From a virus (lineage: Duplodnaviria > Heunggongvirae > Uroviricota > Caudoviricetes), in IMG/VR virus record IMGVR_UViG_2908567220_000010: a stretch of 12,050 bases of DNA; one strand, given 5' to 3'. How positions within the stretch are numbered: position 1 is the stretch's first letter; every line of letters starts with the position of its first letter. The position numbers were made by a program, and so were the translations under genes. Below the pieces are notes generated by a model. That model was not told the DNA's origin, searched no databases, and worked only from the letters and a program-made list of their open reading frames with translations. Below are positions 1 through 9,115 of the stretch, piece by piece.

Positions 1-137
1 CACAACATCCGAGGACAGCATCGTCCGCTGGCCCACAGAAGTCCGGAAAGTCATGGAAGGTCGTTGTTGGGAGGAGGTACAAATTCTCTCATGCAAAAAA
101 TACGTAAAATCGATAATAGCTGGAAATAATTCAATAC

Positions 138-198
138 ATGCACTCTCGAAAGTGCATCAGCCAACCGCAGAACGTTATTGCATACAACGTTTCTGCGG
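138..198 (+). other. Two adjacent inverted repeats (possible RNA stem-loops) in the apparently non-coding left end
   Basis: Seen in sequence: atgcact (138-144) pairs with agtgcat (151-157), 7 bp stem and 6 nt loop; ccgcagaacgtt (165-176) pairs with aacgtttctgcgg (186-198), about 12 bp with one bulge. Neither is followed by a T-run on either strand, so they are not classical intrinsic terminators. Confidence 0.3.
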
Positions 199-395
199 CA
201 TAATCCCAATGATTACTCCCTGACAGGGTTCGTAGGCCACTCAATATCAGGTGCAGTTGATGTATCAACACGGTTCAGCAACACCCGATACTTTTTCCAG
301 GCTTCCAGCAACAAGGTTTCTTCCTCCGTTGCGATTTCCAGCTCAACAACAGTCTGAACGTACCGGGAACAGCCTCCTTCAGAACTTGAAGGATA

Positions 396-3300
396 TCAAT
401 GTTCGCTTCCTGTTAACTGCCGGACAAGTGCAACCAGTTCGCTTACCTGATTTTCCAGAGTGCTGATCCGGGTGTCTGCTGTTGCCAGATTTTCACGTAG
501 CGTTGTGTTTTCCTCTTCCAGCGCGGTAACGCGATCATCTGTTTCACGGGCGACCTGAACAAGTAAACCCGTCACGGCGGCGTAGTCAACATTAAGATAG
601 CGCGTTTCTTCGCGTAGCTCGTTGCCGTCAACGGTCGGGCCTTGCAACTCTTCACCGTAATGGATGAATGAACCAACGGCCTCCGGGATGGCCTCTTCAA
701 CTTCCTGTGCTATAACCCCGGCGCAATGTGCCCCATTCTCCTTGAGCGTGTACGTGTATCCATTAATTTTGCGGATTGCGTCAGTCGCGTTATCGATAAT
801 CTCGATATTTTCTTTCAGTCTGCGGTCTGATGACTGATTCAGTGTGGTGCAGTTAACACTTCCGTTTACAGTAAGGTTTTGCCCGTCTGTTGTTTTTTGC
901 GCATAAAACAGATACGCGGCAGACGTGCCAACCTCAAAAACGTTTTGACGAGTACTGGAACCCCACACCCTGACAGAAAACGGTAGTTCTGCATTACCTG
1001 AGTTCTGTAAAACAAAACGATTACCAGTCCCTGATTGCTTTGTAAGGGTTAAATCAACGGTTGAGTTAACCTCATTCCTGTTGATAGTGAGCGCCTGCGC
1101 TATAGCCCCGTTAACAGCACCTGTTTTGAGTTGAACCGCGCCGTCATTACCATTTAACAGTATCTCAGCTCCGCTAAAGAAATTTTTTAGCGACAGCATC
1201 TTACTTACGCCGGCTGATGAACCCAACGCCCACGCGAGAGAATTACCGGTGCTATCAAACCCACGTACAAAGCAATCCATTTTGCTATAGTCTGACGTGC
1301 TTCCAAGGACATCAATCCGCCCTCCGCCAGATTTTACCGGACTAGATGTGGTTAACGACCTGACAGTTATATCCTGATTCCATCCGGAAACAACAACCTG
1401 ACTCCACGCTGTCCAGTTTCCATTAACAACAAAGCGAACGTATATACGTTTTGTGTCGTTGCTGATCAGCGTTTGCATGTTCGCATAATCCGAAGCAGAA
1501 ACTTTGCGAGTCGACTCTACACGGAGCAAAAAGTTACCGGTTACACCGTCAGGCTTGTTGGTGATATTTGCACCACCTCCAGAGGATGGACAACTATAGT
1601 ATTTAACCGCCCCGGCATCTGACCTGATGGTCAGGTTGTTAAGATCAACCTTCTGGCCGCCAATGTTTTCCGGCTCGATAGCTCCTGCTATCCCGGCACT
1701 GAACGTAGCAGCGGCTGAAAACGCTGTCGTACCTTTGAAAGCCAGTTGACCACCAATCGTTAATCCCTTGTCGAGTTTCGCTTGCGTGATCAATTTGCTG
1801 TTTTGTTTCTGATCAGGACTCTCACCAAAAGCCAGATCCCCATTAGTATCAATTCCAAGATACTTTGGGTTCACGTTGTCTAACTTAAACCCAATGGACA
1901 CATTTTCAGAAGAACCAGAACGCGTTAAAACCAACGGCGTGTGCTGTGCTCCATAGATGCTGAGCGTAGTTGCCGATGAGTCAGTGTCGGTATTTGCAAT
2001 CTCAATCGTTCTGCTTTTAATTTTATACGCTACTGTGAGATCACGGACTTCAACCCTCCCGTCGTGACGAACAACAAGATCCCCTCCTGATGTCCCCCCT
2101 GCTGTCTTTGCCCTGATGCGAACTTCGCCAAGCGAATCAGTGTTAGGACCAGCATAGATTATGCCGCGCTCTGTGTTATCGCCAGTATAAAACCGCACAG
2201 CGGTGACTCCACTGTCTGCCCGCAGGAAGACTGACGGTGTACCTTTTTTGATTGTCAAGTCACCGGTCATTGTATCGCCGGTTTTTTTTACCTGCGCATC
2301 GTTCGTTACGTTGCCAAGTCCAACATCCGATTTCGACGGCTTGTTTGCCGAGCCGTATAGCTCATTGACGCTAAAAGTCCCGTTGTTAAGCCGGGCATCG
2401 GTGCCGGCATAGATCTTAATCTTCGCGGTTGAGTAGTCGATATTGATCGCTGACCACGTATCGCCGCACCGCGAGAATATACCAGAACCGTGGCTATAAA
2501 TGGTCGCCGTGCTTCCGGGCGGCTTATCACCGCGCCAGAAATGACCACCTTTGTCACGCAGAGCTTTTAAGATCTCTACATCGCTCATCTTGCCGTTTGT
2601 TGATATCCCGCTACCGCCAAGACCGAAAGCGCCTGTAAGCATAGCATTAGAAAGACCCAAATCTGCTTTAGTCGGCTTGTTTACCTGGTCGTAAATCCTT
2701 ACAACGTTGCCTTCAATATATCCAGAAGGCGCGGCGGTTTGCTTAACAAATCCGTCTGGAATGTATAATTCTGTGTTTAGTGTTGTCTGCGCCAGCACCG
2801 CAACCTTTGCGTCGTTAATAAACGCACCCTGGAATGCCCAAACCTCAATAAAGCCGTCACCTTTAACCAGGCCGTAACGCATCTGGTTGTTATCGGTCAG
2901 CCCGGTTGACCCTAAGCGGCGTATACTCAGATGACGAGAAACATTATCCGCACTAAGCAAAGAAGGCAGACCGCGCGCCGAGATCTCGATAAAGTCAATG
3001 TTTCCGTAAGGGGAGCCGTAGTTACCAGCGTTAGTAACCATTAGCGTTACATGACTTCTGCTGGTTCCAGGATCGGAAAGTTTCGCGATCTTGATGTAAA
3101 GAGACTCACTAGCAGTAACAACAGGCCAATCGTATTGCGTCATCGGGCTGACGAGTCCCCCGACCTTGTCGAGATATTCTTTCGCCTTGTTCTCTGACGC
3201 TTTAGCGTTGGTTTCGCTGACCTTTGCTGCTGACTCACTATTTTTCGCGTTGGTTTCTGATTTTTTGGCTGCTGTCGCGGAATTTGCCGATGCAGTTTGT

Positions 3301-4172
3301 GAGTCTGCTGCCGCCTGTGCGCTGTTATCCGCATTCGTCTCAGACGTTTTTGCGGCCTTCGCGGAATTTCCTGCCGCCGTTGCCGAGGAAGCTGCACTGC
3401 CGGCGCTCGAGGCTGCGCTCGTTTCTGATGATTTTGCCGCCACTTTTGAAGCCGACGCATCCCGGGCTGAGGTGGCAGCTTCTGACGCTTTCGTGGTCGC
3501 GGTGGATGCAGAAGTGGCCGCAGATTTTTGTGATGCTGCGGCATTCGTTTCTGACGTTTTCGCTGCACCGGCACTGGTGGCTGCCGCGCTTTTTGAAGAC
3601 TCTGCAGCGGCAGCACTTTTTGATGCTTCAGTGGCCTTTGCTGATGCCGTTCCTGCGCTGGAAGACGCTGACTGAGCCGACGAAGCGGCCTGTCCGGCTG
3701 ACGTGCTGGCTGCACGTGCTGAGCCTGCAGCATCAGTCGCATGGGTTGCCGCCTCACGGGCTGATGTGCTGGCATCGCTGGCTGACTTCTTTGCGGCAGC
3801 CGTGTTCTGTGCCACTGCGGACGCGTTATGCGCCACCTCTTCCACCATCAGTTCAAAGCGGCGCAGTGCCTCCGGACGGACATCATCCTCCGTCATGGCA
3901 CCGAGAAAATCATTCAGCGTACCCGGTTGTGAGTCTTCATACACGGTGATGGTCCCGGCATGCGATGGCGGGAAGCCTTCCACCAACAGAATAACGCTGT
4001 ACTGACCGTACTCAACGTCCATGCTGTAACGCCCGGCTTCATCCGGATTTTCTGAGGCCACCGTGTTCGCCACCACCGTGGTGCTGTTACGTTTTGCTTT
4101 CAGCTGGATTGTGCAGTTCTGTACCGGTTTACCTGCACCGTCTTTCAGTACACCTGAAATCTTTACTGCCAT
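396..4172 (-). CDS. stf: Side tail fibre protein, chimeric: lambda Stf-like N-terminus, Ala/Ser/Thr-rich fibrous repeats, large distal domain, C-terminal intramolecular-chaperone (peptidase S74-like) domain
   Basis: Single 1260-codon ORF in the track. The track starts it at a GTG (4176-4178), but the ATG two codons in (4170-4172) gives MAVKISGVLKDG..., which matches the N-terminus of lambda Stf (orf-401) and Rac StfR as I recall them, so I place the start at 4172 (1258 aa). A GGGG motif lies 5 nt upstream. Residues about 118-333 are low-complexity A/S/T-rich with recurring KxSETNA units. GDTMTG (aa 634-639, nt 2262-2279) and KxDLGLxN motifs are typical of phage tail fibres. The C-terminal 144 aa start SDRRLKENIEIID...GVIAQEVEEAIPEAV, characteristic of auto-cleaving chaperone domains. 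Stop TGA at 396-398. Confidence 0.9.
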   Translation of the reverse strand: MAVKISGVLKDGAGKPVQNCTIQLKAKRNSTTVVANTVASENPDEAGRYSMDVEYGQYSVILLVEGFPPSHAGTITVYEDSQPGTLNDFLGAMTEDDVRPEALRRFELMVEEVAHNASAVAQNTAAAKKSASDASTSAREAATHATDAAGSARAASTSAGQAASSAQSASSSAGTASAKATEASKSAAAAESSKSAAATSAGAAKTSETNAAASQKSAATSASTATTKASEAATSARDASASKVAAKSSETSAASSAGSAASSATAAGNSAKAAKTSETNADNSAQAAADSQTASANSATAAKKSETNAKNSESAAKVSETNAKASENKAKEYLDKVGGLVSPMTQYDWPVVTASESLYIKIAKLSDPGTSRSHVTLMVTNAGNYGSPYGNIDFIEISARGLPSLLSADNVSRHLSIRRLGSTGLTDNNQMRYGLVKGDGFIEVWAFQGAFINDAKVAVLAQTTLNTELYIPDGFVKQTAAPSGYIEGNVVRIYDQVNKPTKADLGLSNAMLTGAFGLGGSGISTNGKMSDVEILKALRDKGGHFWRGDKPPGSTATIYSHGSGIFSRCGDTWSAINIDYSTAKIKIYAGTDARLNNGTFSVNELYGSANKPSKSDVGLGNVTNDAQVKKTGDTMTGDLTIKKGTPSVFLRADSGVTAVRFYTGDNTERGIIYAGPNTDSLGEVRIRAKTAGGTSGGDLVVRHDGRVEVRDLTVAYKIKSRTIEIANTDTDSSATTLSIYGAQHTPLVLTRSGSSENVSIGFKLDNVNPKYLGIDTNGDLAFGESPDQKQNSKLITQAKLDKGLTIGGQLAFKGTTAFSAAATFSAGIAGAIEPENIGGQKVDLNNLTIRSDAGAVKYYSCPSSGGGANITNKPDGVTGNFLLRVESTRKVSASDYANMQTLISNDTKRIYVRFVVNGNWTAWSQVVVSGWNQDITVRSLTTSSPVKSGGGRIDVLGSTSDYSKMDCFVRGFDSTGNSLAWALGSSAGVSKMLSLKNFFSGAEILLNGNDGAVQLKTGAVNGAIAQALTINRNEVNSTVDLTLTKQSGTGNRFVLQNSGNAELPFSVRVWGSSTRQNVFEVGTSAAYLFYAQKTTDGQNLTVNGSVNCTTLNQSSDRRLKENIEIIDNATDAIRKINGYTYTLKENGAHCAGVIAQEVEEAIPEAVGSFIHYGEELQGPTVDGNELREETRYLNVDYAAVTGLLVQVARETDDRVTALEEENTTLRENLATADTRISTLENQVSELVALVRQLTGSEH
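399..830 (-). other. Predicted C-terminal intramolecular chaperone / autoproteolytic domain of the side tail fibre (peptidase S74-like)
   Basis: Last 144 residues of stf (aa 1117-1260). The conserved Ser-Asp followed by RRLKENI, then a GxxAQEVEE acidic helix and a coiled-coil-like tail (ALEEENTTLRENLATADTRISTLENQVSELVALV), fits the family found at the C-terminus of endosialidase tailspikes and the T5 L-shaped tail fibre, where cleavage occurs at the conserved Ser. Domain assignment is from motif recognition only. Confidence 0.65.
3180..3827 (-). repeat. In-frame degenerate repeat tract inside stf encoding Ala/Ser/Thr-rich units
   Basis: Protein residues about 118-333 are almost only A/S/T/K/E/N with recurring AAKTSETNA, KKSETNAKNSE, VSETNAKASE units. 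At the DNA level there are imperfect copies such as gcattcgtctcagacgtttttgc (about 3333-3355) and gcattcgtttctgacgttttcgc (about 3542-3564). The repetitive codon structure also explains the long antisense and out-of-frame ORFs reported on the + strand here. Confidence 0.7.
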
Positions 4173-4184
4173 ATTCACCCCACA

Positions 4185-4210
4185 AAAAAGCCCGCCTGAA
4201 CCGGCGGGCT
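4185..4210 (-). terminator. Rho-independent terminator downstream of lom (minus-strand orientation)
   Basis: On the minus strand: AGCCCGCC-GTTCA-GGCGGGCT (perfect 8 bp GC-rich stem, 5 nt loop) followed directly by TTTTT then G. It lies 27 nt after the lom stop and just before the stf start. On the + strand the hairpin has no T-run, so it is unidirectional. Confidence 0.7.
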
Positions 4211-4236
4211 GTCATAACACTGTGTTACCTGGCTAA

Positions 4237-4836
4237 TCAGAACTTATAACCAACACCCACGATGAAACCGTCAGTGCGCCAGTCGCCACTGCCGGAGCCT
4301 TCATAAGCAATATCAATGGCCACGGATTCGGTCGGGTTAAACTGCACGCCAGCCCCCCACGCCAGAGACGTGTTGCTGTGGCGACCATCATCACTTCCGG
4401 TCAGCACTTCGTGCGTTTTCCCCTTGTTGTCAGTTACGCGGAGATAATCCCCGGAGAAAGTAGAAATACGGCTGTAAGCCACACCCGCCATCGCATACGC
4501 GCTGAACCATTCATTCACGCGCACAGACGGCCCCGCCATCACGCTGAACCAGCGGTTACGCACGGAATCCTCATGCCAGCGGGTATCGCTGTAATGCGTT
4601 TTTTGCTCATCTTCAGCGTTGGCATAACTGAATGACGTAATCAGCCCCAGCGTGTCCGTAAACTCATAACGGTATTTCACGTTAATCCCGTTCAGATTAT
4701 CGCTGCCGGGAGCGTTCGTACGGGCATGAAGATACCCCGCGCTCAGTGTGGACTGATGTTCAGACGCCCATGCAGGCGCACCGGATACGGCCAGACAGAT
4801 GGCTGCGGACAAAATGGCTGCACAAACTTTACGCAT
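4237..4836 (-). CDS. lom: Lom, outer-membrane beta-barrel protein of the Ail/Lom/PagC family (lysogenic-conversion moron)
   Basis: 199-aa ORF. N-terminal signal peptide MRKVCAAILSAAICLAVSGAPAWA with an AxA cleavage motif, C-terminal ...GVGYKF ending in Phe as in outer-membrane beta-barrels, and alternating hydrophobic/aromatic strands. It sits between J and stf exactly as lom does in lambda. SD GAGAGG lies 5 nt upstream of the ATG (plus-strand 4842-4847). Confidence 0.93.
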   Translation of the reverse strand: MRKVCAAILSAAICLAVSGAPAWASEHQSTLSAGYLHARTNAPGSDNLNGINVKYRYEFTDTLGLITSFSYANAEDEQKTHYSDTRWHEDSVRNRWFSVMAGPSVRVNEWFSAYAMAGVAYSRISTFSGDYLRVTDNKGKTHEVLTGSDDGRHSNTSLAWGAGVQFNPTESVAIDIAYEGSGSGDWRTDGFIVGVGYKF

Positions 4837-4860
4837 AATTACCTCTCGCTTTTCTGCAAT

Positions 4861-4884
4861 AAAAAAGGCGCCAGAAATGGCGCC
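4861..4884 (-). terminator. Rho-independent terminator between J and lom (minus-strand orientation)
   Basis: On the minus strand: GGCGCCA-TTTC-TGGCGCC (7 bp stem, 4 nt loop) followed by TTTTTT, about 20 nt after the J stop codon. Confidence 0.65.
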
Positions 4885-4904
4885 CGCATATGGGTTATGA
4901 AAAT

Positions 4905-7900
4905 TCAGCTAATCGTGATACCTGCTGTGGATTTCTTCATCACCACAACCAGCAAATCACTGATACTGGCTGTGGGATACCAGTCATTTACCAGCCACGC
5001 TGATACCGAAAACTCCAGCGTCATGTGACCGCGACCGGCAGGCATATCAATAACACCTGTATAAACCAGCGTATTATCCAGCGCGGTACGGTTATAAATT
5101 TCAGCACCGTTTTTCTTCACTATCAGGCGGCATGACGAATAAATATCGTTATTCTCCCGCTCATGTTTAGCGCCACGAAACGCCACCGCGGGAATAACAA
5201 TCTGCCGGTCAAACGGCTGATCGTCATAAACCCTGACGGTAATGGTCCCTGATGGCCACCGCTCCGGTGCACGGGAGTCCCGGGGGAAAGCTTTGCCCAC
5301 TGTTTTAACGAGATCGCCTTCAATCTGGTTCGCAGACAGTTTTCCCAGAACCCGACAGTTTTCATTAATCGTGACGTTGTTGAGCGTCCCGGCGTTCGCA
5401 TTCACGTTACCGCTGATATCCGCATTTTTAGCAGTCAGCTTTCCGTCCGGTGTCAGGGAAAATGCCGGTGGATTTCCACCGCTGGTAATGGTGGGGGCCG
5501 TCAGGCGTTTCAGGAACACTTCGTTCATGAATATCTGATCGCCCTGCCCAACAAACATCGGCTTTGTGTTGCCATTCGCAGGATTAATCATCGCAATCCT
5601 GTCTGCCGCCAGCAGCACCTGACTCTGCATGCCGTCAGGGGTGTTCTCAATACCGGCACCAATACCCGCGATATAAAGGCGTCCGTCCTGCATCTGCTGC
5701 AGCTTCACAGCCCACATGCTGTTCAGGTTATTATTTGTATCAACCTGAACCTTCTGTATCTGCTGAATTGCCGCACTCTGGTCTTCCAGTTTCTTATTGA
5801 CGGTCTGTGTGATTTCATTGCTGACATCCGTAATGGATGTCCTGATTTCAGCCAGGTCAGGCGCAAGCTGACCGTTATCAATCTGCGTCCACAGCTCCTG
5901 AGCCAGATGGGTTTTCCCTATCTCGCCTTTGAAAAAATCCAGATAGCCGGATGCGTCATCACTCGGCTGACCAACAGCCTCCACGAATGCCGATTTGCCA
6001 ACGGTGTTCACACTGCGAACGTAAAAATAATAATTATGGCCCGGCCTGATATTGATACTGGCGGCTATCCAGTACAACGCCGTACCAAGATAGCGTGCTG
6101 TGGTTTCAACCTGCCTGATATCCGCAATCCGCTTTTCCGAGAACCAGAACTCAAACTGTACCGTCGGATCATAAACCGCAAGATGCGGCGTGGCGGTTAT
6201 CTGAAAATAGCCCGGCGTCAGCTCAATCCGAGACGGCGCTGCCGGTGCGGCAATCCGGAACGATACCGATGCCGGATCGCCCTGCTGTCCCCACGCATTT
6301 ACCGCCCGGACTGTCAGCCTGTAATTCCCCAGCGCCAGTTGCGTGAAGCGGTATGTGGTTTCCGTCGTCCGGGCCGTGCTGACCAGCCGCTCACTGCCGT
6401 CATCCGCTGCCACGGTCAGGCGAAGCAGGAAGCTCACGCCCTTCACCACCTTCGGCGTGTCCCAGCGGGCCAGCACCTGGTATTCCCCGCTGTCTGCGGT
6501 GACTTCTGCGGTCAGGTGCTGCACTGCTGGCGGCGTGACACCATTCACCGTGCCGCTCTGGTCGCCGTCAAAGTGCGCCCCGTTATCCACGATGGCCTCT
6601 TTTTCCGGTACATGCTGCACGGCGGTGATGGCATACGTGCCGTCATCGTTCTCACGGATACTCACGCAGCGGAACAGGCGCTGGCGCAGCGTCGGCAGCT
6701 TCAGCCCCCACACGCTGTACTCGGCAACGCCGTCAGGAACCCGGCTCACTTTCACCTTCACGCCGTCGGTGACGGACTGGACCTCCACGCTGACCGGATT
6801 GCCACTTCCGTCAACCAGGCTTATCAGCGTGGTGCCGGAGGATGGCAGCGTGATTTCACGGTCGAGCGTCAGCGTCCGGGTCTGGCTGTTCACCGCCAGC
6901 ACGCGCCCGCCGGTGCTGATACCGGCATAGTCATCATCGCAGATTTCAATGACATCGCCCGGTACATGGCGAAGCCCTTCTGCGCCGACGCTGAAATCCA
7001 CGGTCTGCGTCTCCAGCAGTTCTGTTTTAATCAGCCACAGCCCGGCGCGGTGCGCCTGCCCCCGACTGGTACAGCCAAACGCATCCATCTTCGTGACGTT
7101 ACGACCGTAACGGGCAATGGCCTGCGAGTCCTCCACAAGCTCTGTTGCCGTCTCCCAGCCGTTATCCGGGTCAATCCAGTTCACTTCAACGGCATTATGG
7201 CGGTCTTTCAGGGCGCTGAAGCTGTAGCGGAATGGTGCGCCATCATCCGGCATCACCACATTACTGCGGTTATAGGTCCACACCTTATCTGATGGTCGGT
7301 CCTGCACGAACGTCAGCGTCTGCCCGTTCCATACCGGCATACAGCGCATCGCCGAGCAGAAATCACTGAGCACATCCCACGCCTTGCGCTGTGTGGTCAG
7401 GTACGCATTACAGGTGATGCGCGGCTCCGTGCCGCCAAAGCCGTCCGGCACCGACTGGTCGCAGTACTGGCCGATGACATACAGCGCCCATTTATCCACA
7501 TCCGCCGCACCAAGACGTTTCCCCATGCCGTAGCGCGGATGGGTCAGCATATCCCACAGACACCAGGCCATGTTGTTGCTGTATGCCGGTTTAAACGTTC
7601 CGTCCCAGATACCGCTGTATTGCCGCGTCTGCGGGTTATAGTTCGACGGCACCTGCAGAATACGCCCGCGCAGATGATAATTACGGCTCACCTGCTGGCT
7701 GCCGAACTGCTCCGAGTCCACCTGCACGCCGACCAGTGCCGTGTTCGGGTAGCACTGTTTCACATCGATAATTTCGGTGTATGACGACCAGAGCGTTTTG
7801 TTCTGCAGCTGGTCTGTGGTGCTGTCCGGCGTCATCCTGCGCATCCGGATACTGAACGGGCGCGGCGGCAGGTTATCCACCACCACCGAGGCCAGATACT

Positions 7901-8384
7901 GTGAAGTGGTTTTACCCTTAATGGTGATGTCTTTTTCCGTCACCCAGCCACCATTACGCTGTATCTGAACCAGCAGGCGAACTTCCGACGGATTCCTGTC
8001 CCCCTTTGAGGTGGTTTCCACCAGTGCCTGCACGCCGAAAGTAAAACGCAGACGGTCAATGTTTGCCGACGTGATGGTCCGGGTGATCGGCGTGTCATAT
8101 TTCACTTCTGTACCGAGCACCGTCTCGGAGCCGGAGGATTCAAACCCCTCCGGCGGTGTCTGCTCCTGCTCACCGGCCCGGAACACCACCGTGACGCCGG
8201 AGATATTGGTATTCCCCTCACTGTCCAGCACTGGCGTACTGTTCAGCAGCACGCTTTTTAATCCATCCACCGGACCTTCAACCGGCCCTTCGCTGATGGC
8301 ATCGATCACACTCAGCAACTGCGTGGACTTCAGGTTGTCCTTCGCTTCGCGCGGAGTATGCCCCTTACTGCTGCCTTTACCCAT
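4905..8384 (-). CDS. J: Tail tip / central tail fibre host-specificity protein J
   Basis: 1159-aa ORF beginning [34 protein letters not shown]..., which I recognise as the N-terminus of lambda gpJ. Fibronectin-III-like central region (e.g. [30 protein letters not shown]). GGAG lies 8 nt upstream of the ATG. Lambda J is 1132 aa, so this protein is 27 residues longer. Confidence 0.95.
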
Positions 8385-8406
8385 TCCTCACGCTCCATAA
8401 ACGACA

Positions 8407-8426
8407 AAACCGCCCGGAGGCGGTTT
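8407..8426 (-). other. Stem-loop in the I-J intergenic spacer (weak terminator-like hairpin)
   Basis: On the minus strand: AAACCGCC-TCCG-GGCGGTTT followed by TGTCGTTTAT. 8 bp stem, but the U-tract is interrupted and partly inside the stem, so it is at best a weak or attenuating structure. Confidence 0.3.
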
Positions 8427-8443
8427 CACATAAACGTTTTTCA

Positions 8444-9115
8444 TCAGCGACCAATCACCACAACCTGACCACCATCCCCTTCGTCTGCCGTGCTGATCTC
8501 CTGAGAAACCACGCGTGACCCCACGCGCATTTCCCCGTACAGAACAGGCAGAACATTGCCCTGGGCAACCATGTTATCCAGTGAGGAGAAATAGGTGTTC
8601 TGCTTACCGTTATCCGTTGTCTGTGTACGGGGAGTTCTGGCTTTCGGTGCCAGCATCTGCGCCACACCACCGAGCACCATACTGGCACCGAGAGAAAACA
8701 GGATGCCGGTCATACCACCGGCCCCAATGGCTGCCCCCCATGCTGCAAGGGTGGCTCCGGCGGTAAAGAATGATCCGGCAATGGCGGCAGCCCCCAGGAC
8801 AATCTGGAATACGCCACCTGACTTGGCCCCGGCGACTCTGGGAACAATATGAATCACAGCGCCATCAGGCAGAGTCTCATGTAACTGCGCCGTTAACCCG
8901 GACGTGCTGACGTCCCGCCCGGCAATCCGTACCTGATACCAGCCGTCGCTCAGTTTCTGACGAAACGCCGGGAGCTGTGTGGCCAGTGCCCGGATGGCTT
9001 CAGCCCCCGTTTTCACACGAAGGTCGATGCGGCGACCAAATCGTTGTAAATCCCCGTAAAGGCAGATGCGCGCCATGCCCGGTGACGCCAGAGGGAGTGT
9101 GTGCGTCGCTGCCAT
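8444..9115 (-). CDS. I: Tail tip assembly protein I
   Basis: 223-aa ORF, MAATHTLPLASPGMARICLYGDLQRFGRRIDL..., matching lambda gpI in sequence and length (223 aa). Gly/Ala-rich hydrophobic segment in the C-terminal half. Its start lies inside the 3' end of K in another frame, as in lambda. Confidence 0.93.
   Translation of the reverse strand: MAATHTLPLASPGMARICLYGDLQRFGRRIDLRVKTGAEAIRALATQLPAFRQKLSDGWYQVRIAGRDVSTSGLTAQLHETLPDGAVIHIVPRVAGAKSGGVFQIVLGAAAIAGSFFTAGATLAAWGAAIGAGGMTGILFSLGASMVLGGVAQMLAPKARTPRTQTTDNGKQNTYFSSLDNMVAQGNVLPVLYGEMRVGSRVVSQEISTADEGDGGQVVVIGR

Follow-up and report, generated by a model that had tools for sequence, protein, structure and literature searches.

A lambdoid side tail fibre ending in an S74 chaperone domain, with the remnant of a tfa gene behind it

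The side tail fibre gene stf of phage lambda and of the Rac prophage is followed by a separate gene, tfa, for a tail fibre assembly chaperone. The DNA analysed here (the window; 12,050 nucleotides of the IMG/VR virus record IMGVR_UViG_2908567220_000010, numbered from its first letter) carries an stf gene of this family followed by no complete tfa, which raises the question of how such a fibre is folded. The initial annotation proposed that a self-cleaving chaperone domain at the end of the fibre has taken the place of Tfa. The best explanation of the locus, to which we give a probability of roughly 0.85, is that stf joins a lambda/Rac N-terminal attachment domain to the distal part of another fibre lineage, and that this fibre would fold by means of its built-in S74 chaperone rather than with Tfa.

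The window belongs to a Rac-type lambdoid Escherichia coli prophage and covers its tail-tip end. All genes of the window lie on the minus strand and, according to the open reading frame (ORF) list and Pfam, comprise the C-terminus of the tape measure, M, L, K (JAB and NlpC/P60), I, J, lom and stf; the order J-lom-stf is borne out by the Ail_Lom and J domains that Pfam finds upstream of stf. The nearest complete genome is that of E. coli 2024CK-00188 (NZ_CP150019), the prophage of which contains racR, kilR, sieB, trkG and ydaSTUV, so is a Rac-type element, and adjoins sitABCD, uspF and ompN. Identity to this genome is 100% over positions 1-1300 and 97.8% over 1-8686. The window is mosaic in this comparison, with an unmatched stretch at 8687-8912 (the I/K overlap region) and then 92.7% identity (to 10470), and no complete E. 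coli genome is more than about 96.5% identical across its whole length. The stf gene has 1258 codons in the window and 1257 in NZ_CP150019, a net difference of 3 nt, and the positions of lom and J are both shifted by 3 nt. Promoter and terminator scans of 1-900, and Rfam over the whole window, gave no result.

The features of the fibre gene needed for the argument are the following.

396..4172, minus strand: stf, the side tail fibre gene; 1258 aa from the ATG, TGA stop at 396-398 (ORF list, translation)
399..830, minus strand: intramolecular chaperone domain (IMC, Peptidase_S74); 144 aa, 16.0 kDa
828..833, minus strand: predicted scissile bond Ser1114-Ser1115 (ATG numbering), by analogy with Thr1263-Ser1264 of T5 pb1
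828-830, minus strand: Ser1115, predicted nucleophile; nearly invariant in a 35-sequence alignment
813..815, minus strand: Lys1120 (Ser+5), predicted general base; nearly invariant, and Lys1269 of T5 pb1 is likewise at Ser+5
588..677, minus strand: long beta-hairpin of the IMC, the ‘tentacle’ (AlphaFold2, model residues 142-171)
402..584, minus strand: C-terminal 61-residue helix of the IMC, predicted trimeric coiled coil (AlphaFold2, helix 173-233)

Two starts are available to stf. An in-frame GTG at 4178 lies two codons upstream of the ATG at 4172 (ORF 396..4178, minus strand), but the ATG is the more likely start, as its product begins MAVKISG in the manner of lambda and as PGAP chose it in the homologous record. 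The conserved serine that had been placed at aa 1117 (nt 828-830) is correctly numbered from the GTG, where it opens SDRRLKEN, and becomes Ser1115 from the ATG; from this residue to the last is exactly 144 aa (399-830), as had been estimated. The N-terminus is of the lambda kind, with phage_tail_N (PF08400) covering aa 1-134 (E 4e-71). The lambda-type distal region that pairs with Tfa is absent: similarity to a Tfa-dependent Stf found at the same chromosomal site stops at aa 281, and the remaining 977 residues bear no relation to the lambda-type fibre. NCBIfam returned no useful match for the fibre or for the tfa fragment described below, while RefSeq already calls the homologues ‘pyocin knob domain-containing S74 family peptidase’.

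The C-terminus of the fibre is indeed an S74-like chaperone domain. Peptidase_S74 (PF13884) matches aa 1115-1166 over positions 1-57 of the 58 in the profile (E 2.5e-16; 60.2 bits, cut-off 22), and the domain makes up the last 144 of the 1258 residues of a protein that has phage_tail_N and stands in the stf position. Its motif is S-D-R-R-L-K, in which conservation of Ser, of Asp and of Lys is at least 90% across 35 homologues, the most distant at 27% identity. The Ser/Lys pair agrees with that of T5 pb1, in which Ser1264 and Lys1269 are catalytic and the bond cleaved is Thr1263-Ser1264 (PMC4690869). An AlphaFold2 monomer model (pLDDT 83) contains an alpha/beta subdomain, a long beta-hairpin and a C-terminal coiled-coil helix; hairpin and coiled coil are the IMC architecture described for T5 pb1 (PMC4690869) and endoNF (PMC9608196). 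The helix has a pLDDT of 93-96 over most of its length and gives weak coiled-coil matches in Pfam. Compared by fold, the model matches 3GW6, 7DC3, 3GUD and 4UW8, and in this way every solved chaperone of the kind: those of MyRF, GA-1, T5 pb1 and the K1F endosialidase. By sequence the closest solved relative is S16 gp37 (6F45; E 2.6e-9, phmmer against PDB sequences), where LNVSSDRRIKKDI aligns with LNQSSDRRLKENI, sharing LNxSSDRRxK and continuing through a GVIAQEVE motif. The same search did not recover endoNF or T5 pb1 even at E <=10, and these were seen via fold comparison only.

C-terminal S74 chaperones recur in many classes of fibre and are absent from the mature fibres (PMC12143355, PMC7289586), and T5 pb1 folds with its own chaperone alone (PMC4690869). 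By analogy, C-terminal processing is predicted for the present fibre. The coiled coil at the end of the chaperone would bring three chains into register, and three beta-hairpins would clasp the nascent tip of the fibre. When the tip has folded correctly, Lys1120 would activate Ser1115 to attack the Ser1114-Ser1115 bond; the 16.0-kDa chaperone would then leave, and a mature fibre of 1114 aa (115.3 kDa) would remain. One observation goes against this scheme. The ‘sensor’ Arg and Asp, which in the T5 and K1F active sites come from the neighbouring subunit, were not located in the monomer model, a model that cannot show residues of a neighbouring subunit; the sequence has no Arg at -14 from Ser1115, and most sequences of the alignment have an Arg at a point further upstream (WGxSxR). 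Our literature search returned no paper on a lambdoid Stf with an intramolecular chaperone and no experiment on such an Stf, though one may exist outside the literature searched.

What lies behind stf bears on the same question. The features concerned, together with the segment in which the fibre tip seems to have arrived, are these.

360..395, minus strand: spacer of 36 nt between the stf stop and the tfa fragment (read from the sequence)
213..359, minus strand: 3' remnant of tfa (coding 216-359, stop 213-215), codons 147-194 of a lambda-type tfa plus TAA (Caudo_TAP, tblastn, PGAP)
165..198, strand unassigned: inverted repeat CCGCAGAA...TTCTGCGG, directly after the tfa stop and with no T-run
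359..3330, minus strand: cassette of about 2.97 kb, comprising fibre shaft and tip, chaperone domain and the 36-nt spacer (blastn against SPF_0923)

It had been claimed that the 395 bp downstream of stf hold no tfa-like ORF. As regards an intact gene this stands, no complete tfa ORF of about 194 aa following stf, but the claim overlooked a 48-codon tfa remnant at 216-359, which matches Caudo_TAP over profile positions 87-130 of 131 (E 3.1e-20). By tblastn its 48 residues are 87.5% identical to aa 147-194 of an intact Tfa of 194 aa, and a search with the full 194-aa protein through the window, the 6-kb left flank and mEp460 found only residues 147-194. The remnant has no start codon and lies in frame with stf after the TGA; RefSeq/PGAP label the homologous stretch a pseudogene, ‘tail fiber assembly protein, incomplete, missing N-terminus’. 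In Tfa it is the variable N-domain that attaches to the fibre, while trimerisation depends on the conserved C-domain (PMC9608196, citing the structure of phage Mu Tfa), so that the part deleted here is the fibre-specific one and the part that survives, as a fragment only, is the conserved one. A tfa gene just beyond the left edge, which would have spoken against the replacement, was not found: in the closest genome, identical to the window over 1-1300, the next 6 kb hold sitDCBA, uspF and ompN and show no Tfa similarity by tblastn. The remnant is direct evidence that a tfa gene formerly occupied this place and was cut short by the arrival of the chaperone-tipped cassette, which strengthens the initial proposal that the domain replaces a separate tfa.

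Several smaller elements surround the remnant. The sitABCD iron/manganese transporter operon stops exactly at the left edge of the window, about 210 bp past the tfa fragment, and is also found inside the GenBank entry for ‘Salmonella phage SPF_0923’; either this Rac-type prophage carries sit as cargo at its end, or the SPF_0923 phage record takes in host flank. The spacer is probably intergenic sequence of the donor. It contains a hairpin, CCTTCA-N5-TGAAGG, at 376-392 and a Shine-Dalgarno-like AAGGAGG at 373-379 with no start codon after it; a small gene starting from this AAGGAGG was considered and rejected, as no frame offers a start codon save a 9-codon frame from CTG. In the six loci compared the spacer is kept with few substitutions, mostly in the loop of the hairpin, the stem being constant and the loop reading AGTTC, AGCCC or AGCTC. 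The inverted repeat at 165-198 falls within the region common to prophages with an intact tfa and was not called as a terminator. Its arms are present in mEp460 with changes on both sides, and the stem appears preserved there; it may form the structured 3' end of the late transcript.

The limits of the exchange can be placed by comparison with SPF_0923, a record derived from a prophage that occupies the same site next to sit and keeps both genes intact, stf with 1008 aa and tfa with 194 aa. Homology to it by blastn is confined to 4300-3331 (94%) and 358-1 (97.5%) of the window. Judged from these breakpoints, the cassette at 359-3330 replaces stf from about aa 282 onwards (727 distal residues of SPF_0923) together with Tfa residues 1-146. 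Its insertion into an ancestral stf-tfa pair would have removed the fibre-specific N-domain of Tfa and left the last 48 codons as a pseudogene. Over 496-1300, which codes for chaperone and fibre tip, the DNA of the window is 73-80% identical to fibre genes of non-lambdoid phages, namely slur09 (111.8 kb), the BASEL phage FritzHoffmann, mEp010/013/044 and MagusPhagus, an identity that suggests module exchange between prophages and unrelated phages.

Fibre-gene mosaicism at tfa has long been recognised, and the fragment is mosaic in its turn. Among the viral contigs that bear the junction, the left part of the fragment is constant, while about 19 types can be told apart by its last 10-15 codons. 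Two of these right ends are the endings of intact Tfa proteins, PAVPVME (HK630) and PTNPVRE (PhiR26_1, SPF_0923); a homologue search with the 48-aa fragment gave only short partial Tfa entries, and the intact endings were taken from HK630, PhiR26_1 and SPF_0923. The left junction is identical everywhere, which argues for a single origin. The simplest reading would then be repeated recombination into different backbones through a highly conserved coding stretch of 13 residues. On balance the pattern leans towards the tfa fragment serving as the right-hand homology arm that makes the cassette portable, a Tfa-independent module spreading by recombination within the conserved sequence for the trimerisation domain. 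Several prophages and PhiR26_1 provide another instance of an inserted gene with tfa 3' ends on either side: there, two copies or fragments of tfa enclose a YbcY-like class I SAM-dependent methyltransferase (records L008, 3450-4633; L010, 2128-4620; L063, 1-1436).

The arrangement is far from confined to this window. The segment holding chaperone and fragment (215-830) is present, at a coverage of at least 80%, in 798 of 5426 complete E. coli genomes (about 15%). In a ranked sample, matches took in either the whole segment or the tfa part alone, and never the chaperone alone. The segment was found in prophages adjoining sit/ompN, paoD, bioA-ybhB and potAB, with the pseudogene annotated each time, so the cassette occupies at least four chromosomal sites. 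The junction, taken as a pattern of 34 nt with one N (20 nt from the end of the spacer, then 14 nt from the start of the tfa fragment), occurs in 50 IMG/VR viral contigs, while scanning species-representative genomes for it gave no match. Of the 49 contigs that could be evaluated, 48 have a 144-aa domain ahead of the junction that begins SD...K. The sole disrupted chaperone of the 49 lies upstream of 3752 in contig L040 (IMGVR_UViG_2908572912_000001), where a stop falls within 88 codons and SD...K is absent. Tfa residues 1-146 gave a tblastn match in none of the 50 contigs, 35 of which hold at least 1 kb downstream, and the fragment is intact in 47 of the 48 contigs long enough to judge, the copy in L021 being frameshifted. 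Two plaque-forming phages, mEp460 (viability stated in PMC9836094) and Ayreon, have the same junction of stf, spacer and tfa fragment, and tblastn across the entire mEp460 genome finds nothing similar to a lambda-type Tfa except this fragment.

Selection on the chaperone segment was estimated from six loci. Its dN/dS is 0.09-0.24, with dS up to 0.5, against 0.24-0.56 for the preceding 90 residues (one near-identical pair aside); the tfa fragment has too few changes to be judged. Purifying selection on the segment predicted to be discarded is therefore at least as strong as on the residues before it, as expected of a domain that does its work before it is removed. Such selection is hard to square with an account in which the S74 domain is a degenerate, uncleaved relic that stays on the fibre or renders it non-functional, the tail module of the prophage being in decay. 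That account draws on the many cassette copies in truncated stf genes of degraded prophages (the upstream ORFs have 178-735 codons in several viral contigs), on the existence of copies disrupted by insertion sequences and on the sensor residues that were not located. Yet the ORF of the window is intact over all its codons, Ser, Asp and Lys are conserved, and the same domain is found in mEp460 and Ayreon, which form plaques. Lambda can do without its side tail fibres in the laboratory, and for this reason the viability of mEp460 is no proof that its fibre assembles. Even so, we consider a decaying relic improbable.

Marginally less probable still is that the fibre requires a partner from outside, whether the Tfa of another prophage or a gp38-like adhesin capping the tip once the chaperone has been released, as in S16. 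Other tfa genes in other prophages are usual in E. coli (median 2 places per genome), most genomes having several, so help from a Tfa in trans is possible; moreover S16 gp37, the closest solved relative in sequence, binds gp38 once its chaperone is removed (PMC7289586). A local partner is nevertheless missing: neither a gp38-like nor any other ORF follows stf when the three minus-strand frames of 1-395 are translated and read, no adhesin-like gene is annotated after stf of mEp460, and the whole of that genome offers nothing of a lambda-type Tfa beyond the remnant. Nor would a Tfa from elsewhere be expected to fit, since the fibre-specific part of Tfa is its variable N-domain (PMC9608196) and the tip here has no similarity to Tfa-dependent lambda-type tips beyond aa 281, while T5 pb1 offers the precedent of folding with the chaperone alone (PMC4690869). 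Very improbable is expression of the 48-codon fragment itself, through read-through of the TGA or an internal start, so as to supply the Tfa trimerisation domain: the fragment follows the stf stop directly and in the same frame, corresponds to the conserved C-terminal domain, to which trimerisation is ascribed (PMC9608196), and is intact in nearly all contigs, but it has no ATG or GTG and no suitably placed ribosome-binding site, its sole in-frame candidate, a TTG, is not conserved, one copy is frameshifted, the 19 or so right-end types are as expected from recombination with resident tfa genes and not from selection, a shared frame is a one-in-three chance in a junction that arose once, and a read-through product would leave with the cleaved chaperone. 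All three alternatives are thus disfavoured against a fibre folding by its own chaperone.

If this preferred reading is correct, some consequences follow. For annotation, the mature fibre of a widespread class of E. coli prophages is best taken as about 1114 aa, ending ...LNQS. For engineering, chimeric lambda-type side fibres with such tips would be expected to fold without co-expressed Tfa as long as they retain the last 144 residues. The tfa scar is a clean and datable case of a swap of chaperone strategy in a conserved gene slot, and it marks the site at which fibre cassettes are joined to lambdoid backbones by recombination. The arrangement itself is ordinary and widespread, the S74 domain is known, and RefSeq already names the domain and flags the tfa pseudogene; the addition made here, a scar of single origin with a mosaic right end, is modest, and it leaves our knowledge of how S74 chaperone domains work unchanged.

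The fibre can be set beside the closest known systems. With lambda Stf/Tfa and Rac StfR/TfaR it shares phage_tail_N, the position after J and lom, the prophage family and the last 48 codons of tfa, whereas its distal 977 residues are unrelated to theirs and Tfa has lost residues 1-146 and with them its fibre-binding domain. The endosialidase of K1F, endoNF (PDB 3GW6; MEROPS/Pfam Peptidase_S74), has a chaperone that is only 12-14% identical and serves a tailspike, with a triple beta-helix stalk and a sialidase, rather than a lambdoid fibre. T5 pb1 is alike in the spacing of its catalytic pair, Ser1264/Lys1269 corresponding to Ser1115/Lys1120 with the lysine at Ser+5 in each. In S16 gp37 (6F45) LNxSSDRRxK and the alpha/beta subdomain that follows align well, but that fibre is capped by a separate gp38 encoded downstream, a gene with no counterpart in the window. 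The stf products of mEp460 (AFM76057) and Ayreon (ATP61598) have the same architecture, the same chaperone and an identical junction, with 87% identity over the last 325 aa in mEp460 and 80% over the full length in Ayreon. In mEp460 another module makes up the middle of the fibre (aa 332-933), and both phages integrate elsewhere and carry the tfa fragment unannotated in their records.
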